A DNA stretch of 13,722 nt from a virus (Duplodnaviria; Heunggongvirae; Uroviricota; Caudoviricetes), in the IMG/VR virus record IMGVR_UViG_2778261570_000018, positions 1 to 13,722 of that record; one strand, 5' to 3'. Of the stretch, positions 1 to 13,600 are shown in pieces. Within the stretch, counting starts at the first letter, position 1, and each line of letters begins with the position of its first letter. The position numbers and the translations under genes were made by a program. Below the pieces are notes generated by a model. That model was not told the origin of the DNA. It saw only the letters and a list, made by a program, of their open reading frames with translations, and made no database searches.

Positions 1-215
1 GTGCTGCGGATGATTTCCTGTCGGTGATTAACCCGGAATCGCTGGTGATCAAACAAGGCTTTGCTGAACCGTCGCTGAAAGAAGCGGTAGCGGGTAAAGC
101 ATTCCAGTTTGAGCGTGAAGGTTATTTCTGCCTCGACAGCCGCCATTCTACGGCGGAAAAACCGGTATTTAACCGCACCGTTGGGCTGCGTGATACCTGG
201 GCGAAGTTAGGTTAA
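1..215 (+). CDS. glnS: Glutaminyl-tRNA synthetase, C-terminal fragment (5' end lies outside the window)
   Basis: Frame 3 is open from the window edge and reads [71 protein letters not shown] recognise this as the C-terminus of enterobacterial GlnRS. Stop TAA is at 213-215. Confidence 0.9.
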
Positions 216-240
216 TAGGTATTTCGCCACATGAAAAAGT

Positions 241-265
241 AAACGCCGCTACTGCGGCGTTTTTT
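241..265. terminator. Intrinsic terminator shared by convergent glnS and the Dam-like gene
   Basis: AAACGCCGC (241-249) / loop TACT / GCGGCGTTT (254-262), followed by a T-run to 265. The reverse strand also has T-rich sequence after the hairpin (TTTACTTTTT). The stop codon of the minus-strand gene (264-266) sits inside the T-run. Confidence 0.75.
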
Positions 266-1169
266 ACTTCATTATTGCAATTATATCGTTAGCAACTACA
301 CGTGTTGACGCCTTGCAGGAAACCGACCGTCTGGCTGCCATATGATGTACTTTAAACCCGTTTCCTTCATATAGCTCACGGATGTTTGGAGCACCACTAT
401 TTGTTATCACTACCTTAGCGCCGCGCTGGTGGGCATCCACCAACAGTGATACAAGCCGTTTTTGTTCATCGAAACGGAAGCTATTTCCTGAATAGCTGGT
501 AAATCCCTCTGTATCCGGAAGCGGTTCATACGGCGGATCACAAAAAATCACATCGTCTTCACCAGCCGCCTCGATGACGCTAGCAAAGTCTCCTGATACA
601 AAGGAAGTGTTTTTGAGTACGTCATCAGCCAAAAATGCCTCCATCTCTGCATGTGGGAAGTAGGGCGCTTTGTATTTGCCATACCCCACGTTGAACTCGC
701 CATTTTGGTTGTACCGCGTTACGCCATTAAAACAGTGACGATTAAGGTACAAAAATGCGGCAGCATGATGTAGCTGGTCATATTTTCCTCTGTTAAATGC
801 CTCACGCACTTCGAGGTAAGCGTCAGCGTTGTTGTAATTTTTGAAAAAACTATATGACAGCGTGACGAGCGAATGTCCTTCTCGCTGCAATGTCTGATAG
901 AAGTTAATCAGGTCACCGTTAATATCATTAAGCAGGTTGTGGCGAAATCCTGCATTCGTAAATACGGAACCGCCACCAACGAATGGTTCTATTAACCGCT
1001 TACCGTGTGGTAGATGCTCAAGCACTGTAGGCAATTCTGAGAATTTACCACCTACCCATTTGAATATCGGACGCTCATATTCATCCGGAGTCCGAATGGT
1101 GCGCATATAGCTAATTTCAGCCATCGTATCCTGTTTTTCTATGGCTATGCTTGCTATAGATTTACTCAT
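264..1169 (-). CDS. dam: Dam-family (D12 class) DNA N6-adenine methyltransferase
   Basis: Motifs FKWVGGK, IEPFVGGGSV (SAM site), FLYLNRHCFNG, GEFNV and catalytic DPPY, colinear with E. coli Dam by eye. Start set at ATG 1169 (MSKS...), with a GGGGG SD 6 nt upstream and an ATGAGTAA overlap with the upstream stop. ATG 1124 (MAEI...) is an alternative. The 333-aa form in the ORF track would run through the upstream gene. Confidence 0.85.
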   Translation of the reverse strand: MSKSIASIAIEKQDTMAEISYMRTIRTPDEYERPIFKWVGGKFSELPTVLEHLPHGKRLIEPFVGGGSVFTNAGFRHNLLNDINGDLINFYQTLQREGHSLVTLSYSFFKNYNNADAYLEVREAFNRGKYDQLHHAAAFLYLNRHCFNGVTRYNQNGEFNVGYGKYKAPYFPHAEMEAFLADDVLKNTSFVSGDFASVIEAAGEDDVIFCDPPYEPLPDTEGFTSYSGNSFRFDEQKRLVSLLVDAHQRGAKVVITNSGAPNIRELYEGNGFKVHHMAARRSVSCKASTRVVANDIIAIMK

Positions 1170-1842
1170 AGAGCACCCCCTTATTCGCTTCGAAAACTGC
1201 CTTTGCGAATCCATGTGGAGTAGCACTTCGAAAATTAGCCCTGTCAGGCCCTGGTGGCGCGGCATGGATTCTGTTATCTGGCTTGCCTAATGATTCGTCC
1301 ATTAGGGCATCAGGCATGACAAAGCCCTGGCCGCTCCAGAGGCATGTTTTTTTGGTGTAGTTATCTTCCTGACAATATGCAGTGAAGAAGTAAGGGTGAA
1401 AGATGTGATCTGGCTTACGCCAGAATGTCGATATTTTGCTGACCGGATTTTCAATCATGTACGGACAACCGATCATCTTTGCAATGTCATAACACTGCCA
1501 GACAACCTGCATTGCTTTGAACTGGAAAACCGGATCTTTATTAGCCTTGTCCGAAAACCAGCGCGCGCCGGAAACAGCCAGGTCAGTACACGGTGGGAAC
1601 CCGGCCAGAAACACGATGCGCTGCAAATTCTTACGGAGAAAAGCGTATACTTCATCGCTATCGATGATCGCACTAATACGCGTCAGAACGGCACCTGATT
1701 GCATCCGCTCGTCACTGGTCGATAAGTGCTGTGGATCGACGATAGCGGCATCGACACCGTATTCCAGCCAGGGGGCAACCATTGCCCCCGTAAAATCACA
1801 AAGACTCACAACAAGCGGTCGGTTATTATCGTTCTGCTTCAC
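1162..1842 (-). CDS. Compact C5-cytosine-methyltransferase-like protein (about 226 aa)
   Basis: Motif IV-like [19 protein letters not shown] (PC catalytic dipeptide), motif VI-like MIENP, degenerate motif [10 protein letters not shown], and C-terminal [15 protein letters not shown] resembling motif X. Start chosen at GTG 1842, with GGAGG 9 nt upstream and a 17-nt overlap with the rdgC-like stop. The ATG at 1914 would lie deep inside the upstream gene. Confidence 0.55.
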
Positions 1843-2731
1843 CGCCAATGGCCTCCACCAGCGCGTTAAACAGTGCAGATAATTCGCCCGTAAAGAGCAC
1901 GAAATCAGCATCAAATCGTTGTGCTACATCCTCCCGGTCGATATCGTCGTTCTGGTCATAGAGATCATCACAGAATGTCAGGGCTTTGATACTCATATCA
2001 TCGTTGACTCTGAACGACGCACGGTCCATCCAGTTAATTGCAACGGTCGTAGCTACTTTCCCCGCCTCAATGTGAGACATAATCTCGTCGGACTGTAGAT
2101 CAACTTTGTTGCAGCGAACGGCACCACCATTATCGAGCAGACCCTTTAATGTGGCGTCTTCACCTGCTGTAAATCCGGCAGGGAAGCCGCTTTTAAACCA
2201 CTCGGTCATTGTAATTTCCAGCGGTTCGCGTGGTGTGAATGGAATGACAGGCAGGCTGCCGAGCGACTTTCGCAATAAAGCCAGCTGGTCCTCTGCCTTT
2301 TTGGCGCTGCTTGCCTCAACGAATACCAGATGGTTGCTGCGGTCGATCAGGATTTTGGCGAGTGATTTTCTCGTGAACGCGCGAGGCAAAAGTGAATGCA
2401 GGACTTCATCTTTAAGACTGTCTCTTTCCGTTTTCTTCAGCTTGCGGGCTTGCTCTTCTTCGAGTTTCAGGACTTTTTTCTGCAACTCTTCCTTGAGCAC
2501 CTGCGAGGGGAGAATTTTTTCTTCTCGCTTATGCTGTATTAGCAGAAAACCCTGGTATTCATGGGTGAGGTTGTCACCAAGAACAGGTGTCCAACCGACT
2601 TTAGCTGTGTCCTGAGAACCGCAAGGAGTAAACACGAATTTGCTAAGAGCATCGGATACTTCTGCGGCACTCCAGTTAACTTCACGTGAAAGACGATAGA
2701 TGAAGATGTTTTTGAAAGCGACTGATCTCAT
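1826..2731 (-). CDS. rdgC: RdgC-family recombination-associated DNA-binding protein (mobile paralogue)
   Basis: 301 aa, colinear with E. coli RdgC as I recall it. Shared blocks: [100 protein letters not shown] and a GGEA.R C-terminus. Confidence 0.9.
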
Positions 2732-2737
2732 GTTTCA

Positions 2738-2781
2738 CCAATTGTGTTAGAAAATTCTATTCAATTATCTAACACAATTGG
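2738..2781 (-). promoter_or_regulatory. Perfect 14-bp inverted repeat flanking a TAGAAT hexamer, between the spike gene and rdgC
   Basis: CCAATTGTGTTAGA (2738-2751) and TCTAACACAATTGG (2768-2781) are exact reverse complements, separated by a 16-nt AT-rich spacer. On the minus strand the spacer contains TAGAAT. The downstream arm overlaps the weak GGTGA RBS of rdgC. Confidence 0.6.
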
Positions 2782-2790
2782 ATGTGTTTT

Positions 2791-3444
2791 CTATCCCTTC
2801 TTGAAATCAAAGTTGCTTGCGATAGCCTGGAAGGTGCCTCCAGCCTTGAAATCAATATTTTCGTCGGCTGTCACAGTAATGTTTTTGCCATTAACGCTGA
2901 TGTTATCGGCTGATTTGACGTTAACACTCCCTCCCGCATTCACTACTACATCAGCCGGACCAATGATGTATATCTGCCCTGATTCATTCATTCCAATCCT
3001 TGAGCCTGCTGCCGTATTCGCTATTTCATATCCACCGCCAGCCGTTCGCACTTCGAGCACATTGTTGCGGTGAATCACGAAATCTTTTGTCGCCGAAAAT
3101 TGCGGGCGGGGAGGCGCTCCGTCTACTTCTGGTGGCGTCCAGCCGCTACCATTGCCTGACGCCTCCGGCGCGACGTTTGGTACTCCGCCAGGCGCATCCT
3201 GAGCTGCGCCAACTATCATTGGGCGTCTGGTATCAATTCGACCATTAACATCCAGATAAGGAAACTCTACCCATACCAGGTCGCCTTTTACTGTAGGTAC
3301 AAAAGCGTTTCCGATGGGTAACAGGTATTCCGCCCAGGGTAGATCGTCATCAGGAACGCCATTCCAGTCAGGTAAAACACGGACTTGAGCACGCATAAGC
3401 CCTGCCGGGTGCACAGTTCCAACAATTTGCGCTCTACGCTTCAT
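2791..3444 (-). CDS. Phage baseplate/tail-tip central spike (gp5 / gpV / VgrG-OB-like)
   Basis: The N-terminal pattern GTVHPAGLMRAQVRVLPDWNGVPDDDLPWAEYLLPIGNAFVPTVKGDLVWVEFPYLD...RPMIVGAA fits the gp5/gpV OB-fold signature. The C-terminus is beta-helix-like repeats (VNAGGSVNVKSADNISVNGKNITVTADENIDFKAGG). ATGA start/stop overlap with the upstream gene at 3441-3444. Confidence 0.65.
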   Translation of the reverse strand: MKRRAQIVGTVHPAGLMRAQVRVLPDWNGVPDDDLPWAEYLLPIGNAFVPTVKGDLVWVEFPYLDVNGRIDTRRPMIVGAAQDAPGGVPNVAPEASGNGSGWTPPEVDGAPPRPQFSATKDFVIHRNNVLEVRTAGGGYEIANTAAGSRIGMNESGQIYIIGPADVVVNAGGSVNVKSADNISVNGKNITVTADENIDFKAGGTFQAIASNFDFKKG

Positions 3445-4421
3445 TTGTTCGGCACTCCCAATATCATTCGTGTTGTGTAGCCTACGCGGTCTTCAAAGTG
3501 CGCAACATTTTTTACTATCAGCTTACGGGGCATTGATTCATCAATGCGGTTTTCCTGGTCATAGCGGTATACGATAATCTCTATCACCATTCCCGGTTTT
3601 ATATCAGGATTGCCTGCGACTTCTATATCCATTTTGGGGACGAGAGACAGCTGCATATTGCGAAGAGTTTCCATATCAGAGTCGGATATATAACGCACTG
3701 GGAGTGAGCTATCGCCATATTCGACGTAGCCATCGGTCATGGAATACCCAACAAAACGATATTGATTCTTTGCTGTTGTCGCATGTTCCTGTTGGAGTAG
3801 GCGCATTTTGGACAAAGTGTATTCTGCTTTAGGGTTATTCCCCTCGTAGGTAAATGATGGCGTTTGCTTCATCAGATCAGCCAGGGTGTAAAAGTTAAAT
3901 TCCCCCCGGCATACCCAACATAATGCACCTTTGTCTCGCGCTATCTCCGAAAGCATTTTTGACGGTTTGTCACCGGCATTCAGATGATATGTAACTGCGC
4001 GTTTTAGCACGCTGCTGGTAATTTTAAGTTTGCCGGAATATGCCTTGAATATAGCGTCTGGTGTTTTGTTGGTATGTAAATTTGTGCGCGGGGAGGGGAT
4101 CTTAAACCTGCGCACGTCTTCACTGACAGCAATAACGGTAACAACATCACCAGCCAGCATTGCAGACGTAACAAAGAAATCTGTTTTAAAAGTGCCTGCA
4201 TTACCGTTTGGATCGCCCATTTCAGCCACCAGCGATGCACCGTATTTGGCTTTCCAGTCATCAATTACGGTGCCGGTAGCGTCATGAATTTCCAGTTTTA
4301 GCAAAGGGGCTTTGAGGCTGGTTTTTTCTACATATACTGCGGTAAAAATCCAGTCTCGTGGCACTTTGTTATCGTTAATGAGCACTGACTGTAGAAAATA
4401 TTGTTGTAACTCCTGGGCCAC
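3441..4421 (-). CDS. Probable tail/baseplate hub protein (gp27 / P2 gpD-like), 326 aa
   Basis: Position immediately upstream of, and coupled to, the spike gene. There is weak by-eye resemblance to the gpD/gp27 layout (LKLEIHDATG...GASLVAEMG...GTFKTDFFV...VTVIAVSED, then KPSKMLSEIARDKGALCWVCRGEFNFY). GTG start at 4421 lies 3 nt after the upstream stop (TGATAAGTG). Confidence 0.4.
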   Translation of the reverse strand: MAQELQQYFLQSVLINDNKVPRDWIFTAVYVEKTSLKAPLLKLEIHDATGTVIDDWKAKYGASLVAEMGDPNGNAGTFKTDFFVTSAMLAGDVVTVIAVSEDVRRFKIPSPRTNLHTNKTPDAIFKAYSGKLKITSSVLKRAVTYHLNAGDKPSKMLSEIARDKGALCWVCRGEFNFYTLADLMKQTPSFTYEGNNPKAEYTLSKMRLLQQEHATTAKNQYRFVGYSMTDGYVEYGDSSLPVRYISDSDMETLRNMQLSLVPKMDIEVAGNPDIKPGMVIEIIVYRYDQENRIDESMPRKLIVKNVAHFEDRVGYTTRMILGVPNK

Positions 4422-4424
4422 TTA

Positions 4425-5192
4425 TCACCCCATAGATATCGAGGTTTCGGTAATAATACGTTTTGCGTCCAACTCCCATGCTGTGATCACGTCTGCAATC
4501 ACACTTATCGGCGCTTGTGTGGCATAAATACGCTCTTCTCCAATTGGTGCTGAAACATCCGTAAAGCCGACTTCTTTGGCATCCTGTATCGAGCAAATCA
4601 ACGGGACCGGGACACGAACAAGGTGAGTGGTGGCTTCAAATTGTGTACCTGTCATCAGGCGAAGCCGTGCGCCCAGCGAATTACACATCAGACTCATGGT
4701 CGCTTTATCAGTTGCCATTAACGTAACGTCATACGTCAGAATGGCCTGGGTGTATTCCAGTTCTGCTAAAGGCATTCCGGTATCCGGTTCGCAAAAACTG
4801 GCTACTTTTTTGCGGTCAATCTGCTGATCATCGTTGATATAATTGATATCCATAGTGCGTGAGATATTGACCAGGGGGAGAGCATCCCGGTTAATGTTCT
4901 GGTTTTCAGGTTTTCTCCCTTGCCCGGCATTTGCGCGACGAACTGCTTTAAGAAACTCGATCGCATTGTCGAAACGGGCCACATAGACACGCTCTGCTGG
5001 TGGACGATTCAGGAATGACGCAAAGCGTTTTTCTTCCGGCGCGGGGGCCACCAGTAAGATATCAGAAAAAATGTTGCTGATTAGCGTCGCAAACGCGTTA
5101 TCCACGTTTTCAAAGCCCGTGGTCTGGAATTTTCCTGTGCGTGAGGTTTGCCATTCACCTGTTCGCGCCAGGAGGGTTTTATTTGAAGTCAT
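4425..5192 (-). CDS. Hypothetical protein, phage-associated (255 aa), possibly tail-tip component by position
   Basis: Long ORF with a GGAG SD 7 nt upstream of the ATG and an ATGA overlap with the upstream gene (5189-5192). I recognise no motifs. Confidence 0.6.
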   Translation of the reverse strand: MTSNKTLLARTGEWQTSRTGKFQTTGFENVDNAFATLISNIFSDILLVAPAPEEKRFASFLNRPPAERVYVARFDNAIEFLKAVRRANAGQGRKPENQNINRDALPLVNISRTMDINYINDDQQIDRKKVASFCEPDTGMPLAELEYTQAILTYDVTLMATDKATMSLMCNSLGARLRLMTGTQFEATTHLVRVPVPLICSIQDAKEVGFTDVSAPIGEERIYATQAPISVIADVITAWELDAKRIITETSISMG

Positions 5193-5980
5193 TCGATCAC
5201 TCCGTTTTGAGTCGTATCAAAATTCCTGGCAGGTATGCAGTAGTAAAGCGAACCAACATGTTGTGTGCCGTAGCTAAAAATACGGTGCACGTACCACCAG
5301 CGGCGGGCTACGCCGTTTACCATCTCTTCATTCCATTCAAGAATTGATCCGACGGGGACTTTATTTGCTGCAATACGCAGAATCAGAACATCATCGGTTA
5401 AGCCATCCTGCTCACCGTCTGCGTCAATCGCATGGAAAGAGTCACGCCCGTCCGGGTTATCCAGCACATAAACGATTTCAGGTTCCTGGTAAGTCAGTTC
5501 GCGCTGGTTGTTATCCAGTTCAGTGAATGACTCTTCTCCTGTTTCGTCGCTGACTACCCCATATGTGCCAACATCTGGTCGATATAAGAGAGCCTGAAAC
5601 GCGTCTGGGCTGGATTCAATAATCAGCATCCAGTCTGCGCGGATTTGGTCGTTAAAGGCTTTATGCCCGTTATAGCGTGCTTTTAACTGTGGAGTCGGTT
5701 CTCTGCCAGCCAGGGAAGATGGAAGTATGGCTATATCTGATTCGCCAGCATCCGGAGTAAGGCCACCGTTGCTATCAGCAAAATTATCATGGCTATCAGC
5801 TTTGGCGGCGGGTTGCTCTTCCAGAATGCTGAATGAATCCGAACCGGTATTGCCATGTTCCGGCGCGCCTCCTGCATTCGCTTCAATCGGCGCTGGCGTT
5901 TCTCTCTGCGTGCTGTCATGTTCTGACTCCTTACTTGCCAGGTTTGCATCGTCAGCAAACCATTCGTCAAAACGGCCCAT
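5189..5980 (-). CDS. Hypothetical protein with acidic, low-complexity N-terminal region (about 263 aa)
   Basis: Long ORF. Start set at ATG 5980 (MGRFDEW...) because GAGGA lies 5 nt upstream. The track start at 5992 is a TTG. The N-terminal ~100 aa are D/E/S/P/A-rich and the C-terminal part looks globular (..RRWWYVHRIFSYGTQHVGSLYYCIPARNFD). Confidence 0.6.
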   Translation of the reverse strand: MGRFDEWFADDANLASKESEHDSTQRETPAPIEANAGGAPEHGNTGSDSFSILEEQPAAKADSHDNFADSNGGLTPDAGESDIAILPSSLAGREPTPQLKARYNGHKAFNDQIRADWMLIIESSPDAFQALLYRPDVGTYGVVSDETGEESFTELDNNQRELTYQEPEIVYVLDNPDGRDSFHAIDADGEQDGLTDDVLILRIAANKVPVGSILEWNEEMVNGVARRWWYVHRIFSYGTQHVGSLYYCIPARNFDTTQNGVIE

Positions 5981-6074
5981 AAGCATCCTCAAAGGTCGAT
6001 CTGTCAGGTATCGAAAGGAAGATTTTCGGGAGATTGTGATTTTGGATGAAGGAGGGGGAATTCATAAAATGCAC

Positions 6075-6103
6075 TTGCGCACAGTGCAACGGTGCGCTAT
6101 AGT
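6075..6103 (+). promoter_or_regulatory. Candidate sigma70 promoter and operator of higBA-1
   Basis: TTGCGC (6075-6080), 17-nt spacer, TATAGT (6098-6103). The spacer carries nested inverted repeats GCGCAC(6077-6082)/GTGCGC(6092-6097) and TGCAC(6070-6074)/GTGCA(6084-6088), typical of an autoregulated TA operator. Confidence 0.55.
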
Positions 6104-6142
6104 TATGGCATTCAGTAATCCTCACGGAGGATCAAATGGCTA

Positions 6143-6445
6143 ATGACCAAAAAAATTAACATAAAGGATTTCAGGGATGCGTGGCTTGATGATTTTTTTG
6201 AATTTTCAACACCACATAGAAAGATACCTCCTGATATTCATATGACATTGTCACGGAAGTTGGACATTATCAATGCCGCAACTACCTGTAATGATTTAAG
6301 ATCACCACCAGGTAATCGGTATGAGGAACTGTCAGGGAAGCTAAATGGCTATTCATCAGTAAGGGTGAATAAGCAATATAGGTTAATTTTTAAGTGGGTT
6401 AACGGAAAGGCCGAGGACTTGTATCTCGACCCTCACAAATACTAA
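6143..6445 (+). CDS. higB: HigB-family (RelE/ParE superfamily, 'killer protein') type II toxin
   Basis: 100 aa. Contains RSPPGNRYEELSGKLNGYSSVRVNKQYRLIFKWVNGKAEDLYLDPHKY, characteristic of HigB toxins. It is followed by a cognate HTH antitoxin (toxin-first order typical of hig loci). Confidence 0.8.
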   Translation: MTKKINIKDFRDAWLDDFFEFSTPHRKIPPDIHMTLSRKLDIINAATTCNDLRSPPGNRYEELSGKLNGYSSVRVNKQYRLIFKWVNGKAEDLYLDPHKY

Positions 6446-6452
6446 AACAGAT

Positions 6453-6471
6453 ACCCGGTTACGAACCGGGT
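6453..6471 (+). promoter_or_regulatory. Intercistronic hairpin between higB-1 and higA-1
   Basis: ACCCGGT (6453-6459) / loop TACGA / ACCGGGT (6465-6471), a perfect 7-bp stem within an unusually long 70-nt toxin-antitoxin spacer. No T-run follows. Confidence 0.45.
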
Positions 6472-6515
6472 TCTGACCAGAGTCCACTTAATACGCACGC
6501 TAGTAAGGGCAAAAA

Positions 6516-6854
6516 ATGAAACAGGCAACCAGAAAACCGACGACCGTAGGTGATATCCTGCTGTACGAATACCTGGAGCCGTTAGAGCTGAAGATCAACG
6601 AGTTAGCAGAAATACTTCATGTTCATCGTAACACCGTAAGTGCTCTTGTTAATAATAATCGTAAGCTAACGATGGATATGGCATATCGCCTGGCAAAAGC
6701 ATTCGATACTTCTGTAGATTTTTGGATTAATCTTCAGACCGCAGTAGATCTGTGGGAAGTCGAAAATGATATGCGCGTTCAGGAAGAGTTAAGTCGTATC
6801 AATACTGCTGAAAAATTTATTTCTCAGCGGAACCTGAATAAAAAAGCAGCCTGA
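6516..6854 (+). CDS. higA: HigA-family (VapI/XRE HTH) antitoxin
   Basis: 112 aa. TVGDILLYEYLEPLELKINELAEILHVHRNTVSALVNNNRKLTMDMAYRLAKAFDTSVDFWINLQTAVDLW is the classic HigA/VapI HTH pattern. AAGGG SD lies 6 nt upstream. Confidence 0.85.
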   Translation: MKQATRKPTTVGDILLYEYLEPLELKINELAEILHVHRNTVSALVNNNRKLTMDMAYRLAKAFDTSVDFWINLQTAVDLWEVENDMRVQEELSRINTAEKFISQRNLNKKAA

Positions 6855-6873
6855 TATAGTAAAACACATACAA

Positions 6874-6905
6874 AAAGCCCACTTAGCAAGTGGGCTTTCC
6901 TTTGT
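6874..6905. terminator. Intrinsic terminator after higBA-1 (bidirectional shape)
   Basis: AAAGCCCACT (6874-6883) / loop TAGCA / AGTGGGCTTT (6889-6898), followed by CCTTTG. The A-run upstream supplies a U-run for the opposite strand. Confidence 0.75.
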
Positions 6906-6910
6906 AATTA

Positions 6911-7270
6911 ATGAACATTAAACCCATCCGTACAGAACAAGATTATGAGGCCGCACTGCGTGCGGTCGAACCGATGTTCGATAACGAACCGGAAATGAAT
7001 ACTCCGGAAGGTGATTTCTTTGAGGTTATGAGTCTTCTCATTGAGGAGTACGAGAAAAAACATTACCCAATTGAGCCACCATCACCTATTGAGGCCATTA
7101 AATTCCGTATGGAACAGCAAGGGCTGACCGTGAAGGATCTGGAACCGGCAATTGGTAAGTCAAACCGTGTTTACGAAGTGCTTAATGGGACACGAAATTT
7201 GACGTTACCTATGATTCGTCGTTTACATGCCCAGTTTGGTATTCCACTGGAAAGCCTGGTTGGCGTTTGA
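6911..7270 (+). CDS. Orphan HigA(YgjM)/COG5499-type HTH antitoxin-like regulator
   Basis: 119 aa. The N-terminal domain is MNIKPIRTEQDYEAALRAVEPMFDNEPEMNTPEGDFFEVMSLLIEEYEKKHYPI. The C-terminal HTH is IEAIKFRMEQQGLTVKDLEPAIGKSNRVYEVLNGTRNLTLPMIRRLHAQFGIPLESLV. This is the same architecture as E. coli HigA (YgjM) as I recall it. No partner toxin of the matching family is adjacent. Confidence 0.75.
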   Translation: MNIKPIRTEQDYEAALRAVEPMFDNEPEMNTPEGDFFEVMSLLIEEYEKKHYPIEPPSPIEAIKFRMEQQGLTVKDLEPAIGKSNRVYEVLNGTRNLTLPMIRRLHAQFGIPLESLVGV

Positions 7271-7275
7271 GTTTT

Positions 7276-7300
7276 GCGGTCTGGATGACCGCTGTTTTTA
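7276..7300 (+). terminator. Intrinsic terminator after the orphan HTH gene
   Basis: GCGGTC (7276-7281) / loop TGGAT / GACCGC (7287-7292), followed by TGTTTTTA. Confidence 0.65.
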
Positions 7301-7333
7301 TAAAAAATAGATACTAGAAATTTGGTAGCATAT

Positions 7334-8113
7334 ATGAGTACAGATTCATCAGTAAAGAAGACATCTGAATCAGATAAAGAAAATGAGTCCGTTGTTGATT
7401 CCGTCAAGAATACAATGGAATATGTTATAAAAGACAAAGTATTTAATAAGCTTTTTGCATATATTTTTATATCTTTTCTGGTTGTTAACTGGAGAGATAT
7501 ATTAATTTTGTTCAAATCAAAAGAAGATGTTCTATATACTCTGTCAATAGTTTTTACCGGTGAAAAAATACAATTTCTTGATGGCGAGATTTTACCTCCT
7601 TGGTTTGCCCACTTTTTCTTGCCGTTTTTCTATGGTGTGATTGCGTCGATTGTGGCACCAGTAATTACACTTGCGGTATCTTGCATTACAACTAAGGTGT
7701 ACTATAAAATAAAAATTTTGGACAATAAAACAGACGAAAACGAGAAAGAGAAATTAGCAAAAAGAGCCAAGAAAAGAGCTGAGCGTGAAATAGAGGCTAG
7801 CTATAGCCAACAAAAGCTGGATGAAAGAAAAAAAGAACTGGAAGACATTTTAAACAAAATAGAAGATGAAAAAGAAAAATATGATAAAATGAAAGAAAGG
7901 TTTGATGATGCCATAACGCTTACATATAAAAATATTCACATTTTGCCTACTCTGTATGAGAATAGGAAATGTAAAATTGAAACTCCGCAGGATTTATATG
8001 ATTTTATTGCAGCAATAAAGAAAACATCATTCTATAGTACTGATTTTAATGAATTGTTCTCTGATATTTCTCGATTGTATTCTGAAATGCAAACTGATTT
8101 ATCAGAAAAGTGA
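7334..8113 (+). CDS. Hypothetical membrane-anchored coiled-coil protein (about 259 aa), no recognised family
   Basis: Uninterrupted ORF in very AT-rich DNA. ATG 7334 is preferred; the track start at 7322 is a TTG. It has hydrophobic segments LFAYIFISFLVVNWRDILILF and WFAHFFLPFFYGVIASIVAPVITLAVSCI. These are followed by a K/E/R-rich heptad-like stretch (KEKLAKRAKKRAEREIEASYSQQKLDERKKELEDILNKIEDEKEKYDKMKERF) and a ~65-aa C-terminal region. Confidence 0.6.
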   Translation: MSTDSSVKKTSESDKENESVVDSVKNTMEYVIKDKVFNKLFAYIFISFLVVNWRDILILFKSKEDVLYTLSIVFTGEKIQFLDGEILPPWFAHFFLPFFYGVIASIVAPVITLAVSCITTKVYYKIKILDNKTDENEKEKLAKRAKKRAEREIEASYSQQKLDERKKELEDILNKIEDEKEKYDKMKERFDDAITLTYKNIHILPTLYENRKCKIETPQDLYDFIAAIKKTSFYSTDFNELFSDISRLYSEMQTDLSEK

Positions 8114-8114
8114 A

Positions 8115-8137
8115 AGCCTGGCATAGACCACCAGGCT
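8115..8137. terminator. Hairpin shared by convergent genes 7334-8113 (+) and 8149-9342 (-)
   Basis: AGCCTGG (8115-8121) / 9-nt loop / CCAGGCT (8131-8137). T-rich sequence follows on the minus strand (TTCACTTTTCT) and more weakly on the plus strand. Confidence 0.5.
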
Positions 8138-8148
8138 ATATGTGTGGT

Positions 8149-9342
8149 TTATGCTTTTTTTACATACGCCATAAACATTTTTTCAGCATGTTCTTGTGGC
8201 GTTCCTGCCATGACAAGCGCATCAATGAACGCCTGCTTCTTCAGTGCGAACTGATCGGCCAGGCGTTGCTGAAGCTCCTTGTTTTTCTGTTTCTCACGTT
8301 GCAACGCCGCTTCTTTTGCTGCCGCCCGTTTTTTCTGTGCGTCTGACAACTTTCTGGCCTTGGTCAGTTGGTCACGTAGCTTGTCAATCTTGCCGTTGTC
8401 CTTTGCCAGTTTTGTGCTTAAAGCGGCCTGGCGCTTCTGATAGAGCCTCCATTCTCGCTTGGCAGCGTCAACGTTCGTTTTACTGCTACGATTGCGATTA
8501 AACTCCTTCTCGTCTTCTTTTGAGAAGTGTTTGGTTGTACGGCGGCGATCGTCACCAAATGCAATTTGCGTTGCAGCCTTTTGTAGCGCACGAGCAATAC
8601 TCATTTGCCAACTGGCGGACTGTAACCGCGTCATTGAGTGGATCACGTGTTTACAGGCGACGCCTTGCAGCTTCGGGTTGCGAACTTTTGGATAGGCGTA
8701 TTCTTTTGGCGGTGCCAGGGCAAAGTTACCCGCAGTGGCGATGTAACGATACCAGTATTGATGACGACCACAGTCACAATCGAAAGACACTCGCCCGGCG
8801 CACAGTGATTTAGTGATTTTGAGAGCTGATTTATCGTCTTCTGCGATGTCATCAACCATCTGATCCCATTCTTCAAAGCGTATCCGGACGATATGGTGCT
8901 GGTGGACGGATATATCCGATGCTTCTACGCGGATATTAATCACATTGTGGCGAAGAGATACGGGTGTAGCTCTTTTGATACCAGATCCGTCATCCACGGC
9001 GTTATTTGCACGCTTAATATCGATAGCCTGGCTGGATGCCACCAGCTGGGCGTATGTGATGCCAGCCGTCTTGCTGTCATATTTTTCGCGCGTTTTACTC
9101 CGTAGCTTTTCGAAGCCTTTCAGATCGTCTCGCGTAAAGAACGTGCCGCCTTTTTTCTTCCCTAACTTGAGAATATCTTCGACGGATTTGTTCCTAAGTC
9201 TGCCTGGCGTCAGCGTCCGGTGAGCTTGTCGGCGCTTACGGGTTTGTTCTTTCCTGATAAGGTCGAATAAACGCGTGAAGTCCTTAGAGGACAGACCGTC
9301 AGTGATATAGCGCCCGTCCTGGTTTTTCAGGAAATCAGGCAT
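8149..9342 (-). CDS. Phage-associated protein with SWIM-like CxC...CxH zinc-finger motif and lysine-rich coiled-coil C-terminus (397 aa)
   Basis: FDCDCGRHQYW...(38 residues)...GVACKHVIH resembles a SWIM finger with an expanded linker. The C-terminal ~110 aa are K/R/Q/A-rich heptad-like. GGAG SD lies 7 nt upstream, and there is an 8-nt overlap (ATGCCTGA) with the upstream gene. Confidence 0.5.
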   Translation of the reverse strand: MPDFLKNQDGRYITDGLSSKDFTRLFDLIRKEQTRKRRQAHRTLTPGRLRNKSVEDILKLGKKKGGTFFTRDDLKGFEKLRSKTREKYDSKTAGITYAQLVASSQAIDIKRANNAVDDGSGIKRATPVSLRHNVINIRVEASDISVHQHHIVRIRFEEWDQMVDDIAEDDKSALKITKSLCAGRVSFDCDCGRHQYWYRYIATAGNFALAPPKEYAYPKVRNPKLQGVACKHVIHSMTRLQSASWQMSIARALQKAATQIAFGDDRRRTTKHFSKEDEKEFNRNRSSKTNVDAAKREWRLYQKRQAALSTKLAKDNGKIDKLRDQLTKARKLSDAQKKRAAAKEAALQREKQKNKELQQRLADQFALKKQAFIDALVMAGTPQEHAEKMFMAYVKKA

Positions 9343-9664
9343 TTTCTATCTCCGGTTCCGCGCTCGCGTAATCACGGATCTTGTTCCTCAGCCATGCCAC
9401 ATCAGGAAGAGTTAACGTGGTCCCGGCGGGCATTTCTTCCATTTCTGACTCATGGCCCACCAGCACCCGGAATACCCAGCGCAAATCTGCATTGCCATAC
9501 GCCCTGTAGGCTGCAAGGTCTGAACGATATACTTCATCAATCTTTATCGTGTACTGGAAATTATCAGAGTGATACTCCGATACCCGCTTAATCATTTCCT
9601 GGTGAAACAGCGCACGAAAAATATCGTCTTCAATGTACCTATCGTCGAGTCTGCTATAGCCCAT
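9335..9664 (-). CDS. Hypothetical protein (109 aa), coupled to the SWIM-like gene
   Basis: ORF with a GAGGGG SD 7 nt upstream of ATG 9664. It overlaps the start of the downstream gene. I recognise no motifs. Confidence 0.55.
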   Translation of the reverse strand: MGYSRLDDRYIEDDIFRALFHQEMIKRVSEYHSDNFQYTIKIDEVYRSDLAAYRAYGNADLRWVFRVLVGHESEMEEMPAGTTLTLPDVAWLRNKIRDYASAEPEIENA

Positions 9665-9726
9665 AACAAAGCCCCTCAGTCATAACCTGGGGGAAACTGT
9701 ATGTAGGGTGTGAAATGCGAGAAAGC

Positions 9727-9750
9727 AGCGTCACCGGGCCTGGTGACGCT
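9727..9750 (-). terminator. Hairpin/terminator after higBA-2
   Basis: AGCGTCACC (9727-9735) / loop GGGCCT / GGTGACGCT (9742-9750), a 9-bp stem. On the minus strand it is followed by GCTTTCTCGCATTTC (moderately U-rich). Confidence 0.5.
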
Positions 9751-9756
9751 GTGAAG

Positions 9757-10038
9757 TTATGCGTGGAAAAATAATGGACGGATGTTTGGGCGAGCGGTTT
9801 GCGAAGCAACCCAAAGCTCATACTGAGATTGCATACCGGTCCACATTTCGGCACTGGTTCCAAGAGCGGACTCCAGACGAAGTGCCATATCAGCAGAAAT
9901 GCCTGCTTTTTCGTTCAGAATTCGGGAAAGTGCCGTGCGAGTAATGCCTAATGCAGCAGCGGCGTCTGTGACTGACATGTCTCCCAAATATTCACGAAGA
10001 ACCGCGCCAGGATGCGCGGGATTATGCATACGACTCAT
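9757..10038 (-). CDS. higA: HigA-family (VapI/XRE HTH) antitoxin, second copy
   Basis: [76 protein letters not shown] is the canonical HigA/VapI pattern. ATG 10038 has an AGGA SD 5 nt upstream. The track start at 10050 is a TTG overlapping the toxin stop. Confidence 0.85.
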
Positions 10039-10046
10039 AGTGTTCC

Positions 10047-10328
10047 TCAATGATAATCCTGATAGTCAACTAGAATTGCGTCTTCTCCTTCAAATCGGAA
10101 GGTAAGTCGCCAGTTACCGTTTACCGATATTGCCCAGTGACCTTTAAGGTCCGCCCCCTTTAGAGGGTGCAATTCCCATCCAGGCGCAGACATATCGTCC
10201 GGGCGTTTAGCTGTATTAAGAGCAGTCAATTGAATGCGTAGCTTAACCGCATGTTTGGCCTGAATGCCTGCGGTTGAACCTGTCTTGAAAAAGCGTTCAA
10301 GCCCTTTATGGCGAAATGACTTAATCAA
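10047..10328 (-). CDS. higB: HigB-family type II toxin, second copy
   Basis: (L/M)[39 protein letters not shown]...[40 protein letters not shown] matches the HigB 'killer protein' pattern, which normally begins MIKSF. I therefore place the start at TTG 10328 (GGATGGA upstream) rather than at the track start 10391, which lies in the promoter. Confidence 0.8.
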
Positions 10329-10354
10329 AATAATTCCATCCGTGCGCGTAACCT

Positions 10355-10391
10355 GTGTATATACACTACACGCAGAGGGAGCGAAATGCAA
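10355..10391 (-). promoter_or_regulatory. Candidate higBA-2 promoter with perfect 12-bp palindromic operator
   Basis: Minus strand: TTGCAT (10391-10386), 17-nt spacer, TAGTGT (10368-10363). The perfect palindrome GTGTATATACAC (10355-10366) overlaps the -10 hexamer. Confidence 0.5.
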
Positions 10392-10529
10392 GCACTATCC
10401 GTATAGACAGAGTTTCTTCGCCGCCCTGGAATTTATTGACTGTCAACAAGTGACTTTCATTAATCTTAAGGCATGGACCAGCTCGATAGTGAGCTGGGTG
10501 TTATTTACCGATCGAATGGATTCGAAAAG

Positions 10530-10664
10530 ATGAATATTTTTAATAAGCTGATTGATTTATTGAATAAATTCATTAGTGCTTCTTTAACTCAGCAGGTATC
10601 CACGTCAGTGTTTTTGTTACTCTTCTACCTGGTATTGAGGGAGTTAACAAAGCTACTAATGTGA
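10530..10664 (+). CDS. Possible small hydrophobic peptide (44 aa; 63 aa if started at 10473)
   Basis: MNIFNKLIDLLNKFISASLTQQVSTSVFLLLFYLVLRELTKLLM has a C-terminal hydrophobic helix. The DNA is AT-rich, the SD is weak, and the stop abuts the stop of the convergent 217-aa gene. It could be a chance ORF. Confidence 0.2.
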   Translation: MNIFNKLIDLLNKFISASLTQQVSTSVFLLLFYLVLRELTKLLM

Positions 10665-11318
10665 TCAAAGTATCACGGTATCTTCATCAACTTCTTTCCC
10701 AGCCAGTGACTTTGGCTGGGAACTGCCTGCTTTAACTTTTTCATGCCCAATAATGGAAAGGAACGAAGTGAGTATGCCTGTTTTTTGCTCTTTCTCGACT
10801 GTACCGGTCATCTGCTCTACGTAATCCGCACTGGCAACGTTGTGGTATACGGTCGCGTAGCAACACAGGATCATCAGAATATGCTCCGGCCTGATATCCT
10901 GCCAGTTCACCCTGTAGACTTCTTCTCCGTTACCGTTGTATTCGGTATCAACGATAGAGTCGGGGATTTCGAAAGCACCTTTGTTATTTTGCGGCAGGGA
11001 TAATAGCTTCTGGAGTTTTAACTCTCTGTATCTTTCCATCCCGACGATGATTGCTGCTCTGCCATCGGCATGACGGGTCTTGAGAGTCACCTGGCTTGCT
11101 CCGGTGCCAGCGGAGATCGTTGGCGTAATTTCGTCTACCAGTACCTTAAATTTGCTTTTCCGCAGGGCTGCTATAGCTGGAGGAATTTTTTGCTTTTGCT
11201 CCAATGCTGACGCGGGAAGGGGTTTTACTTCGTTAATAATGAGAGCACCGTCTTTCAGTATTGCAGTGAGCATTTGAGGCTTGCTGGTGGTCAGGCTGAA
11301 TATTGCGATCTTTTCCAT
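10665..11318 (-). CDS. Hypothetical phage-associated protein (217 aa)
   Basis: Start set at ATG 11318 (MEKIAIFSL...), with GGAGAAAGGA immediately upstream. The track start at 11360 lies inside the upstream terminator. I recognise no motifs. Confidence 0.6.
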   Translation of the reverse strand: MEKIAIFSLTTSKPQMLTAILKDGALIINEVKPLPASALEQKQKIPPAIAALRKSKFKVLVDEITPTISAGTGASQVTLKTRHADGRAAIIVGMERYRELKLQKLLSLPQNNKGAFEIPDSIVDTEYNGNGEEVYRVNWQDIRPEHILMILCCYATVYHNVASADYVEQMTGTVEKEQKTGILTSFLSIIGHEKVKAGSSQPKSLAGKEVDEDTVIL

Positions 11319-11344
11319 TGTCCTTTCTCCACGGATGACGGATA

Positions 11345-11370
11345 CAAAAAAAGGCCGCACATGGCGGCCT
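11345..11370 (-). terminator. Intrinsic terminator reading on the minus strand, directly upstream of the 217-aa gene
   Basis: GGCCGC (11353-11358) / loop ACATG / GCGGCC (11364-11369). On the minus strand it is followed by seven U (A-run 11346-11352 on plus). Confidence 0.7.
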
Positions 11371-11392
11371 GCTTTGGCGTTATGACTCCCTA

Positions 11393-11450
11393 CCGCGCTT
11401 CGGCTGAAAGTTAATCGTCAAAAGAACCTTCAACGGGAGCCGTTAGCGCG
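11393..11450. repeat. Imperfect long-range inverted repeat (13-nt arms, 32-nt spacer)
   Basis: CCGCGCTTCGGCT (11393-11405) against AGCCGTTAGCGCG (11438-11450). The CGCGCT/AGCGCG and CGGCT/AGCCG blocks pair, with a 2-nt internal mismatch. Confidence 0.5.
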
Positions 11451-11586
11451 ATGGATTATGTGCAGTTTGTGATTTCCAAAATAGTGTCAACTACTTTTTG
11501 TGGATTTTATTTTTTGTCCGAAATTTGGCCTAAATCATGTTGATTTGGCTGATTATTTTTATAACATAAAACTTCATTTTGTTTAC

Positions 11587-12216
11587 ATGAAGGACGGTGT
11601 AGTGAAGTTAAGGGTTTTAGGGACCGCGCTCGCGGCTATGTTGGGATGCGTATCTGTTAATACTGCCAATGCAACTGCGTTACCTGCAAAGTATTGGGCT
11701 GGTGTGAAAGTGTTGCGGAACGCTGAAAAAGGCAATACAGCTGATGATATTTTCAAGTTTTGCCAAAAAGAAAATATCCCTCTGCACCCGGTTGAGCCGT
11801 ACTTTACAGGAAAGAATGATTTCTGTGTGTTTGCGTATACCGCAGACCAAACAGATAAGGCTATACGCAAGACAGGGTATTCTACTCAAGACACTATGGC
11901 GTCCTTAAGTAAAAACTGGTTGCAGTTTGAGGTTTACCGTAGTGAAGGAATGGGAGAGCTATTGCAGCCACTGTATATGCTGGCGTTAGTTCCGGAAGGG
12001 CAGCAGTTCCTTATTCGAAAAGGAATGCTTCGGAAAAGCGATGTAACCGGATTCAATAACACGATGGAGCTTGAACGCTCAATGAAGCAAAAGCAAGCGC
12101 CTAAGCAGCCAACAGCCGAATGTATTAGCAGCGAGATACAAAAGGCATTAAGCGAGCAGCCTTACATTGATCGTGGTGTGGCGGAAATGGCTGCCAAAAT
12201 GAAGTGTTCCAATTAA
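11587..12216 (+). CDS. Secreted protein or lipoprotein of unknown function (about 209 aa)
   Basis: Signal peptide (M)KLRVLGTALAAMLGCVSVNTANA, with a possible lipobox MLGC or SPase I site ANA-T. Start is ATG 11587 or GTG 11602 (AAGGA 7 nt upstream). The track start GTG 11500 adds an implausible AT-rich leader. Confidence 0.6.
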   Translation: MKDGVVKLRVLGTALAAMLGCVSVNTANATALPAKYWAGVKVLRNAEKGNTADDIFKFCQKENIPLHPVEPYFTGKNDFCVFAYTADQTDKAIRKTGYSTQDTMASLSKNWLQFEVYRSEGMGELLQPLYMLALVPEGQQFLIRKGMLRKSDVTGFNNTMELERSMKQKQAPKQPTAECISSEIQKALSEQPYIDRGVAEMAAKMKCSN

Positions 12217-12259
12217 CGTCAAATAGAATAACAAGATAGTAAATTTTGGAGTTAATGAA

Positions 12260-13081
12260 ATGTTCTTTATGAAAAATGGAAAAAGATTTTCCGCAACAAT
12301 GCTTGCTACTATTGTCGCTCTTTTCGTTCCCACATTCACCTTTGCTTATGATTTTAGCAAAATTGACTGCAATGCCCCTAAAACCAGGCAGATGTTAATC
12401 GATGATTATAATGAACTACTCAAGGACGATCAGGAAGCAATCACTGTAATTGATGCTTATAATCAGATTAATGAAATAAGCGAAAAAAGTAAGCTCCAAT
12501 GTTTAGGCACGTATGAGTTCTCAGATGGAAGTGCGCTTAGAGTTAGATATAAGTTATATTTAAATAGCCTCGGCACACCCATATATGAATTTGCTCCAGT
12601 TGAGGAATTAACGCAGGATGATGTAAGCGCATCTATTCAAAATATCCCTGCAACCACAGCGAGTAGGACTGGGGGGAATGAAGAAACGTATGCCTGCAAG
12701 GTGGCTGTAACTTACAAGGGGGAGCGTTCTAACTATATGGGGGATTCCGGAACATGGGATCGTGTGATTACTGACTATGGCACTTATTTTTCATGGGATT
12801 TACCACGCGGAAACCGAGGCAACAGCACAGGTCAGGATGCTTTTAGTGGCATGGACGAATCAAAGCCTGTATTAGAAAATCAGCTAGTGAGAAAGGAAAC
12901 TGAAAAAGATGGTAGCGTGGTTGATGAGTTTAGGACAGAAGTGAGTTATGGAGATAAACAACCGGTACATAAGTTTGTATATGCCCGTAGAATAAAACCT
13001 ACAGGAACGAGAGAATATTATGTCACTGATTTGACGGACAAGCGGGCATTTATGTTTCTGAATTGCCAGCAAGATTCGTAA
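12260..13081 (+). CDS. Secreted protein of unknown function (273 aa)
   Basis: GGAG lies 8 nt upstream of ATG 12260. Signal peptide MFFMKNGKRFSATMLATIVALFVPTFTFA-YD. I recognise no family. Confidence 0.6.
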   Translation: MFFMKNGKRFSATMLATIVALFVPTFTFAYDFSKIDCNAPKTRQMLIDDYNELLKDDQEAITVIDAYNQINEISEKSKLQCLGTYEFSDGSALRVRYKLYLNSLGTPIYEFAPVEELTQDDVSASIQNIPATTASRTGGNEETYACKVAVTYKGERSNYMGDSGTWDRVITDYGTYFSWDLPRGNRGNSTGQDAFSGMDESKPVLENQLVRKETEKDGSVVDEFRTEVSYGDKQPVHKFVYARRIKPTGTREYYVTDLTDKRAFMFLNCQQDS

Positions 13082-13086
13082 TTGAT

Positions 13087-13117
13087 AAAGCAGGCTTAAC
13101 GACTAAGCCTGCTTTTT
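13087..13117. terminator. Strong intrinsic terminator between convergent genes
   Basis: 12-bp stem AAAGCAGGCTTA (13087-13098) / loop ACGAC / TAAGCCTGCTTT (13104-13115), with the T-run continuing to 13117. Confidence 0.8.
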
Positions 13118-13122
13118 GAATT

Positions 13123-13473
13123 TTACTCGGTAATAGTTTTGCAGTTGTTTTGGTTTAAGACCAATCCAAGTTTGCTGGCGGCCAACTCATTTTCTGTGTG
13201 AGAGCCAGCAAATACAAATCCTTGTTTTATCTTATTTACGGTGAAATATTTATTGTATATAAATGCCCAGACAAGTGAAGCTACCCAAGGACCAATTCCT
13301 GCAGTGAGGAATGCCAGGATTAGCATCACAACGAACACCCCGATGAAAGTTATAAAGTCTTTCCTGAACAAAGCCGGGAAGGCACCAAAAAAGAACGTAG
13401 TCCAGGAGAATCCATAAAAGCCTGAGATGGACTCGCCTGTCCGAGGATTTTCTAAGTTAATTTTAGTAGCCAA
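13123..13473 (-). CDS. Small inner-membrane protein (116 aa, two hydrophobic helices; DUF2628-like impression)
   Basis: GFYGFSWTTFFFGAFPALFRKDFITFIGVFVVMLILAFLTAGIGPWVASLVWAFIY. TTG start at 13473 has an AAGGA SD 9 nt upstream. The family call is only an impression. Confidence 0.55.
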   Translation of the reverse strand: MATKINLENPRTGESISGFYGFSWTTFFFGAFPALFRKDFITFIGVFVVMLILAFLTAGIGPWVASLVWAFIYNKYFTVNKIKQGFVFAGSHTENELAASKLGLVLNQNNCKTITE

Positions 13474-13530
13474 AGTTATTCATCCTTTAACGTAAAAAAA
13501 CAAATAATTATAAAGCTGTGTGAGTGTGCT

Positions 13531-13559
13531 ATTTTACTAATCTACACTATGTTATGCAA
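13531..13559 (-). promoter_or_regulatory. Near-consensus sigma70 promoter for the small membrane protein gene
   Basis: Minus strand: TTGCAT (13559-13554), exactly 17 nt, TAAAAT (13536-13531). Confidence 0.6.
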
Positions 13560-13600
13560 TTTATTGGTATCATGCCCCGGCCTGACCGGGGCAAAAGCTA

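Follow-up and report, generated by a model that had tools for sequence, protein, structure and literature searches.

The window analysed here is a 13,722-nucleotide (nt) stretch of viral DNA (IMG/VR record IMGVR_UViG_2778261570_000018, positions 1 to 13,722), and our subject is the gene located at 1826-2731 on its minus strand. This gene is almost certainly a bona fide member of the RdgC family and the D6-type counterpart of hrdC in phage P1. The best overall explanation of the locus, to which we assign a probability of about 0.6, is that a P1/D6-family RdgC is encoded by the first gene of a three-gene, repressor-controlled unit, followed by two methyltransferase-like genes. Sequence comparison indicated that the surrounding element is a D6-like plasmid-prophage of ~90 kb from the P1 family and not a chromosomal prophage. 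The rdgC gene itself appeared to be an old resident of phage and phage-plasmid genomes, not one taken recently from a host chromosome.

The RdgC-family protein and its conserved residues

The open reading frame (ORF) of the gene is intact, running from ATG at 2731 to TAA at 1828-1826 and encoding 301 amino acids (aa). The Pfam family PF04381 (RdgC), with a curated cut-off of 25 bits, matched the product over its full length, with residues 6-298 aligned to profile positions 3-298 of 298 (E 5.1e-103, 344.9 bits). The protein also matched PHROG 724 (E 1e-124) and the NCBIfam models NF001462 (381 bits, cut-off 330) and NF001464 (303 bits, cut-off 227). The RdgC structures matched in the PDB were those of E. 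coli (2OWL, E 1.4e-110) and P. aeruginosa (2OWY, E 1.4e-61). The protein was 95% identical to orf65 of phage D6 and 52% identical to P1 HrdC. D6 orf65 already carries the annotation "RdgC family", with similarity to P1 hrdC, so that the gene, its family and the phage type were all known beforehand.

An AlphaFold2 model of the window RdgC monomer resembled the experimental structures, with template modelling (TM) scores of 0.86 to 2OWL_B and 0.84 to 2OWY_A over ~306 columns. The two finger helices were present in the model, at residues 76-94 and 100-117. Residues 166-300 were modelled with low confidence, the predicted local distance difference test (pLDDT) values ranging from 30 to 65. The window protein belonged to the same length class as E. 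coli RdgC and was 59% identical to the K-12 protein over its whole length.

The roles of ten E. coli RdgC residues, including the gate residues R118 and F120, have been defined by mutagenesis (Briggs et al., PMC2965237). Nine of these ten residues were kept in the window protein. The basic fingertip sequence RKLKK was identical, with R96, K97, K99 and K100 corresponding to E. coli R97, K98, K100 and K101, which are required for the loading of E. coli RdgC onto circular DNA (PMC2965237). The gate residues R117 and F119, within the PRAF motif (E. coli R118 and F120), were also kept, and were invariant in 51 of 51 aligned sequences. At the horseshoe interface, E216, H220 and K225 (E. coli E218, H222 and K227) were retained. 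The exception was E. coli Q212, which was replaced by Val210. Val occurred at this position in the window protein, D6 and three close relatives, accounting for 5 of the 18 members of the D6-type clade, while all 33 other aligned sequences (13 within the clade and 20+ outside it) had Gln. In E. coli, the Q212A mutant of RdgC lost its in vivo function, with DNA binding at the wild-type level (PMC2965237).

The similarity to E. coli RdgC was distributed unevenly along the protein. In 20-residue bins, the identity reached 75-95% at residues 81-120, 141-160 and 261-280, and fell to 35-55% at residues 1-80, 121-140 and 161-240. An earlier interpretation, made from the sequence alone, had described nearly identical blocks between strongly diverged segments, namely the N-terminus and the 170-250 region, and had read this pattern as a mosaic that suggested capture and adaptation of the host gene. 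The nearly identical blocks were indeed present, with AQRFDADF among the runs identical to K-12 RdgC. The divergence of the N-terminus was only moderate. The only feature specific to the lineage was additional divergence at E. coli residues ~161-240, which include the α-6 helix of the horseshoe interface. The identity to E. coli within these residues was 40-55% in the D6-type clade, versus 60-85% in other enterobacterial phage copies.

The inference of capture drawn from this pattern was not upheld. The peaks of identity at residues 81-120, 141-160 and 261-280 were common to P1 HrdC, KpF5, AVIO78A and P. aeruginosa RdgC. Positions at which the window protein agreed with E. coli were enriched for positions at which these independent homologues also agreed with E. 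coli, with odds ratios of 5.0-7.6 for P1 HrdC, KpF5 and AVIO78A and 2.4 for P. aeruginosa RdgC. The sliding-window identity profiles of the window protein and the independent homologues were likewise correlated (r 0.62-0.70). The conserved blocks coincided with functionally defined elements of RdgC (PMC2965237), namely the finger domain, which bears the basic tip RKLKK, the PRAF gate and the helix that follows it. Because the shared positions are also conserved in independent homologues, a mosaic relative to the host protein carries no special information, and what looked like one is the conservation profile of the whole family.

Origin of the gene and of its alleles

The window matched Escherichia phage D6 over 84% coverage at 95.9% identity. 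It also matched many non-mobilizable plasmids of ~78-98 kb from E. coli, Salmonella and Shigella; the best of these was pAPEC201603 (96% coverage, 97.8% identity), and no identical record was found. The neighbouring ORFs included P1-type baseplate and tail genes 5, 6, 24, 7, 25 and 26, a mat gene and HigB/HigA modules. The element, a low-copy plasmid, encodes a Cre/rox system and partition genes. The description of the stretch as phage-derived DNA in the sequence-only reading was right, and can now be narrowed to a D6-type plasmid-prophage, as opposed to an integrated prophage.

A mobile copy of RdgC is not unusual. Homologues were detected by tblastn in 295 phage records and 1209 plasmid records, and the phage carriers included P1, P7, D6, lambdoid phages of Klebsiella and Salmonella, a Nonanavirus, Pseudomonas F116-like phages and Vibrio ICP1. 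RdgC homologues have also been noted in lambdoid early-left operons (2025, PMC12315714). The view that RdgC is normally a single chromosomal gene therefore had to be abandoned, and the P1 copy carries its own name, hrdC, in the P1 record.

In a neighbour-joining tree of 51 RdgC sequences (200 bootstraps), 25 chromosomal RdgCs of Enterobacterales formed a tight clade with a bootstrap value of 96, its members being 77-95% identical to E. coli RdgC. The 301-aa proteins of the D6 type formed a separate clade (bootstrap 100) outside the chromosomal one. The members of the D6-type clade were 59-100% identical and came from phage-plasmid-sized contigs of Escherichia, Salmonella, Shigella, Klebsiella, Raoultella and Enterobacter. 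P1 HrdC, like three further copies from enterobacterial phages, also branched outside the chromosomal clade. In the same tree, two rdgC copies on two large contigs of Xenorhabdus hominickii DSM 17903 grouped together.

These relationships made it very improbable that a host chromosomal rdgC was captured recently and then diverged adaptively in patches. Such a capture would agree with the closer similarity of the window protein to E. coli RdgC (59%) than to P1 HrdC (52%), and with the long peptide runs identical to E. coli RdgC. These runs, however, belong to the blocks that are conserved throughout the family. The window protein was equidistant (58-60%) from every chromosomal member of whatever genus, including those of Escherichia, Salmonella, Yersinia, Photorhabdus and Dickeya, although these proteins are mutually 77-95% identical, and the spread of identity within the 301-aa clade across several genera also spoke against a recent capture. 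At the DNA level, the only match to chromosomal rdgC in a blastn comparison with 5426 complete E. coli genomes was confined to nt 207-358, a segment of ~150 nt with ~72% identity, which led us to reject recent capture as well as gene conversion by the host gene. The glnS gene of the D6-like element served as an internal control for recent acquisition from a host, since its DNA was 96-98% identical to chromosomal glnS. A tree of phage versus chromosomal RdgC, which the sequence-only reading had named as a check, went against host-gene capture.

The glnS gene is itself a side feature of the element. Its 3' end occupies window positions 1-215 on the plus strand (peptide 24-215), and belongs to a complete element-borne gene for glutaminyl-tRNA synthetase (D6 orf62). 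By its sequence, this glnS is recently acquired cargo derived from a host, and possession of an own glnS is a known hallmark of D6-like genomes (PMC6799933). In one 822-kb contig (GCA_900604155.1; locus L095, 12517-14400), the chromosomal nagE-nagBACD genes directly adjoin a D6-like element whose RdgC is identical. The switch from plasmid-type to chromosome-type sequence lies inside glnS, at ~13130, and is accompanied by frame-breaking indels. Either the element has integrated through glnS by homologous recombination, or the assembly has joined two sequences at the repeat that they share.

The gene could also have been the housekeeping rdgC of its genome, an interpretation favoured by the family assignment alone. 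It was refuted from several sides. The flanking genes are P1-type tail and baseplate, toxin-antitoxin and plasmid partition genes, and all full-length matches were plasmids of ~78-98 kb or phage D6. Under the NCBIfam equivalog for the enterobacterial housekeeping RdgC (NF001460), the window protein scored 409.5 bits, below the cut-off of 501, which together with its position outside the chromosomal clade and on a plasmid-prophage excluded it as the housekeeping orthologue. A chromosomal rdgC with at least 95% nt identity to that of K-12 was found in 5425 of the 5426 complete E. coli genomes, and 99 genomes also carried the D6-type gene. Because the chromosomal gene is this widespread, the 99 genomes hold two paralogues, and the objection that the gene might simply be the sole resident copy does not apply; that it is a second, mobile-element copy, as proposed earlier, was confirmed.

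The gene was not a pseudogene or a decaying copy, as shown by the intact ORF across many contigs and by the overall ratio of nonsynonymous to synonymous substitution rates (dN/dS) of 0.06-0.14. This ratio indicates purifying selection, and the protein is thus maintained by selection. The exact window protein was indexed in 2531 blocks of an assembly collection.

Mosaicism was nevertheless detected, but only between alleles of the phage-plasmids. In a comparison of the window with D6 in 100-nt windows, the segments ~900-2300 and ~3300-4900 were 99-100% identical, while the identity in the segment 2300-3300 fell to 75-92%. One breakpoint of this patch lay inside rdgC, where the synonymous divergence (dS) between the window and D6 was 0.44-0.61 across codons 1-160 and ~0-0.02 across codons 161-301. 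Between D6 and the plasmid pRHB39-C20_3, the dS pattern across rdgC was the opposite. Relative to D6 orf65, which is the matching gene at the matching position in the same kind of element, with ~100% DNA identity in the 3' half of rdgC and in the methyltransferase genes, the window therefore carries another allele of the rdgC 5' half, the operator spacer and the baseplate gene. These patterns indicate that the real mosaicism consists of an exchanged patch of ~1 kb, and that the gene diversifies by exchange among related phage-plasmids.

The three-gene unit and its upstream region

The order rdgC, C5-like methyltransferase, Dam very probably represents an operon with translational coupling (Table 1). 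The coupling of rdgC to two methyltransferase-like genes, already proposed from the sequence, held up on inspection, as both stop/start overlaps (17 and 8 nt) are real.

Table 1. Coordinates of the features in and around the rdgC unit (numbering of the window)
Feature	Position	Strand	Description
Terminator	241..262		Bidirectional terminator where dam and glnS converge: a G+C-rich hairpin that has T-runs on both strands; marks the 3' end of the unit
dam	264..1169	minus	Dam-type N6-adenine DNA methyltransferase, 301 aa from ATG 1169; ATGAGTAA holds both its start and the overlapping stop of the middle gene
Middle gene	1162..1842	minus	Small C5-cytosine-methyltransferase-like protein, 226 aa from GTG 1842; overlaps the 3' end of rdgC by 17 nt
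rdgC	1826..2731	minus	rdgC/hrdC-type gene, 301 aa; RdgC-family, predicted ring-forming DNA-binding protein; equivalent of phage D6 orf65
Inverted repeat	2740..2779		Perfect 12-bp inverted repeat, AATTGTGTTAGA-N16-TCTAACACAATT; two TTGTGTTAGAWAAT half-sites, 2742-2755 (+) and 2764-2777 (-)
Promoter-like site	2793..2764	minus	TAGAAA-18-GATAAT; -10 element within the left arm of the repeat
Recombination patch	~2300..3300		Patch relative to phage D6; spans the rdgC 5' half, the putative operator and most of the baseplate homologue (gene 5)

The GTG start of the middle gene is preceded by GGAGG 8 nt upstream, and agrees with the start of the PHROG 757 alignment and with the annotation of D6 orf64. 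The Prokaryotic Genome Annotation Pipeline (PGAP) and some gene callers prefer ATG 1782, which would drop the segment resembling motif I (F-x-G). The middle gene matched PHROG 757 ("DNA methyltransferase", E 3e-78), and D6 orf64, which has equal coordinates, is annotated as "putative DNA-cytosine methylase". It had no match in Pfam or NCBIfam, and its putative assignment as a methyltransferase comes from PHROG 757 and the resemblance to methyltransferase motifs (F-x-G, P-C, E-N-P/V) alone. BLASTP gave no similarity between the middle gene and the N-terminal half of P1 Dmt, and homology of the two was rejected.

The Dam protein belongs to the D12 class, with matches to PF02086 (E 7e-57) and TIGR00571 (dam), and shares 69% identity with the C-terminal half of P1 Dmt. 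A G-rich Shine-Dalgarno sequence (GGGGG) lies upstream of its ATG. When the three genes were submitted to PADLOC, generic methyltransferase models were returned for Dam alone, and nothing for RdgC.

A variant arrangement was observed in pRHB39-C20_3 (locus L091, 3890-6178), where an RdgC allele with 86% identity is followed by one fused Dmt-type gene of 762 aa that overlaps rdgC. The context of tail, rdgC, dmt and glnS was unchanged in this allele. Since the fused gene replaces two genes at the matching site, the methyltransferase module is exchangeable while rdgC stays in place.

The perfect inverted repeat sits in the 59-nt gap between rdgC and the baseplate gene, whose stop codon is at 2791. 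Its 14-nt motif TTGTGTTAGAWAAT was over-represented in both sequences, with 3 copies in the window against 0.23 expected and 10 copies in D6 against ~1.5 expected. Eight of the ten sites in D6 were intergenic, adjoining c1, lpa, icd/ant, ref, cre, orf52 and rdgC (twice). Such neighbourhoods are the kinds of sites where P1 has C1 operators, and the stretch of the P1 record examined confirms such operators for dmt and ban alone. Between alleles, the half-sites were conserved and the spacer was variable. A terminator function for the palindrome was rejected, as it has no T-run and was not called by the terminator scan; paired operator half-sites fit better. By analogy with P1, where the uhr-hrdC-dmt operon is annotated with the promoter Pdmt and the C1-controlled operator Odmt, the segment 2740-2779 is a putative bivalent C1-type operator of D6 specificity, and control of the unit by C1 seems somewhat favoured. 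The P1 operator consensus itself, ATTGCTCTAATAAATTT, had no good match in the window or D6, the best reaching 13 of 17 positions or fewer. If the TTGTGTTAGAWAAT motif is the operator, D6 would use a sequence other than that of P1.

The likeness to P1 and P7 thus extends beyond the protein family. In all these P1-family plasmid-prophages, the rdgC-type gene lies directly upstream of, and overlaps, a gene for a Dam-containing methyltransferase (dmt in P1, dam in P7), and in P1 a repressor-type operator lies upstream, as the putative one does here. The differences are also clear. P1 has uhr in front of hrdC and one fused Dmt of 754 aa, whereas the D6-type unit has no uhr and has two separate methyltransferase genes, the first of which is unrelated to the N-terminal half of Dmt. 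The D6-type unit is located behind tail gene 5 and next to glnS, whereas the P1 operon is located by the plasmid replicon.

Possible roles of the phage RdgC

In the role that we propose, the phage RdgC would be a toroidal dimer that closes around duplex DNA irrespective of its sequence. The unit would be transcribed from a promoter overlapped by the pair of C1-repressor operators, and rdgC and the methyltransferase genes would be switched on together at infection or induction, like the C1-controlled uhr-hrdC-dmt operon of P1. Late expression may be added by read-through from the upstream tail genes, which is possible because no terminator separates them from rdgC. By coating phage or host duplex DNA, the protein would limit strand exchange by RecA/RecFOR, and possibly RecA-dependent signalling, at the time when the element is replicated and methylated. 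Two published observations are consistent with this scheme. E. coli RdgC inhibits the strand exchange, ATPase and LexA cleavage activities of RecA by competition for DNA (PMC11077077, PMC2965237), and infection with P1vir induces hrdC and dmt (bioRxiv 10.64898/2025.12.28.696737). PsiB of conjugative plasmids provides a functional analogy, as a mobile-element protein that restrains RecA during the establishment of incoming DNA (PMC2965237). The two proteins are unrelated, however; PsiB targets free RecA by binding it, RdgC acts by competition for DNA, and an effect of the phage RdgC on SOS would follow by analogy only. Antagonism of RecA as the selected function, which is suggested by analogy with the host protein, is accordingly offered as a tentative assignment that falls somewhat short of even odds.

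Several points weigh against this interpretation as a whole. Because Q212 is replaced by Val, and Q212A abolishes the in vivo function of E. coli RdgC, the phage protein may not act as the host RdgC does and is perhaps functionally unlike it. Divergence is greatest in the C-terminal (base) domain, which is also modelled with low confidence. The assignment of the operator draws on motif recurrence and analogy, and the promoter-like site has a weak -35 element. P1 hrdC was non-essential for lytic growth and plaque formation in a CRISPR interference screen (PMC10695390), and the searchable literature contained no experiment directly on the function of a phage RdgC. In addition, blanket inhibition of RecA would not be obviously beneficial, since P1-family phages use host RecA for cyclisation and good bursts and carry the RecA-dependent nuclease Ref. 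Ref (D6 orf87) is encoded by this element too, together with a UmuD' homologue, and the relation of the element to RecA is for this reason not simply antagonistic.

The protein might instead serve to maintain the plasmid-prophage. Expressed at a low level in the lysogen, it would cover the plasmid and keep down RecA-mediated dimerisation or toxic RecFOR-dependent recombination at stalled plasmid forks, complementing Cre-lox. The low copy number of the plasmid, with its Cre/rox and partition genes, would suit this role, and so would the frequent occurrence of RdgC homologues on large non-phage plasmids and the ability of host RdgC to counter the loading of RecA by RecFOR at forks (PMC2965237). 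However, the putative operator pair and the C1-controlled Pdmt of P1 predict repression in the lysogen, and the host already provides RdgC. We regard a maintenance role as unlikely.

A role like that of RexA of phage λ would be a non-specific DNA binder that biases the decision between lysis and lysogeny or excludes other phages. λ RexA is a phage DNA binder of this kind with the centre and base domains of RdgC (PMC11077077), Casjens and colleagues have raised the idea for lambdoid RdgC homologues (PMC12315714), and a changed function could follow from the Q212V replacement and the divergence of the base domain. The window protein, in contrast, keeps the full RdgC architecture, including the finger with its tip and the gate, which are not listed among the domains shared with RexA (PMC11077077). 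RexA, which has only the centre and base domains in common with RdgC, was crystallised in a closed form without a central pore (PMC11077077). A Foldseek search of the PDB with the model of the window protein returned RdgC structures alone at E <= 0.001, with no RexA among them, and the protein had neither sequence similarity nor significant Foldseek similarity to RexA. There was no RexB-like gene near rdgC and no PADLOC match for the window RdgC, and the gene lies next to DNA-modification genes and downstream of a putative repressor-type operator rather than in an immunity region. On this evidence a RexA-like role appears even less probable than one in maintenance.

The unit might also be an establishment or anti-defence operon, in which RdgC blunts SOS and immunity triggered by RecA or by recombination intermediates while the methyltransferases protect the DNA. 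The phage RdgC could act in this way by coating DNA once C1 is absent, or by joining host RdgC in mixed rings that do not close. Such rings are conceivable, since the two proteins have identical gate interfaces but the horseshoe interface has diverged, including Q212V. The literature search gave no report of anti-defence activity for a phage RdgC, and we consider this role improbable. Conversely, the pair of rdgC and dam could be what some retron-type systems sense. In a Salmonella toxin/antitoxin screen of retron-Sen2, over-expressed host dam and rdgC were both triggers (bioRxiv 10.1101/2020.06.22.160242). The operon at 264-2731 co-encodes RdgC and Dam, the two activities that in their host forms trigger retron-Sen2.

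Other features of the window were observed among and beyond the tail genes. At 6143-7270 on the plus strand, a HigB-like toxin (PF05015), a HigA-type helix-turn-helix (HTH) protein and a second HTH protein are encoded among the tail genes. All 119 aa of the second HTH protein matched the first 119 of the 402 positions of the PADLOC model PD-Lambda-2_B (E 4e-43), and it may be a truncated or split relative of the PD-Lambda-2 defence system. A second HigB-like/HigA pair at 9757-10391 on the minus strand is also present in pAPEC201603 and is absent from D6 at the corresponding position. Beside the toxin-antitoxin genes, between blocks of tail genes, an ORF of 263 aa at 7322-8113 on the plus strand has a low GC content (33-38%) and no family match; by eye, its N-terminal half is hydrophobic and its C-terminal half is rich in Lys and Glu and possibly coiled-coil. 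The segment 11500-13473 contains plus-strand ORFs of 238 and 273 aa and a minus-strand ORF of 116 aa, without Pfam or PADLOC matches and with N-termini that are hydrophobic by eye. This segment is the most variable part of the window relative to D6 and related plasmids (88% identity or missing), and takes the place of the simB-like superimmunity gene of P1.

As a discovery, the gene carries little weight, for D6 already has it annotated, the P1 record gives its counterpart the name hrdC, and phage and plasmid annotation routinely includes RdgC homologues. What the present analysis adds is the Q212V replacement at a position required for the in vivo function of E. coli RdgC, a likely pair of repressor operators, and the shuffling of alleles within the gene between phage-plasmids. 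Relative to E. coli RdgC, the window copy is distinguished by Val in place of Q212, by the divergence at ~161-240 and by its place in a mobile-element operon with methyltransferase genes. The remaining interest lies not in identification but in the biology of the phage RdgCs that are carried by hundreds of phages and plasmids. For this biology the D6/P1 family is a tractable test bed, with a non-essential gene, available genetics, and a host paralogue for which a structure and mutant phenotypes are at hand.

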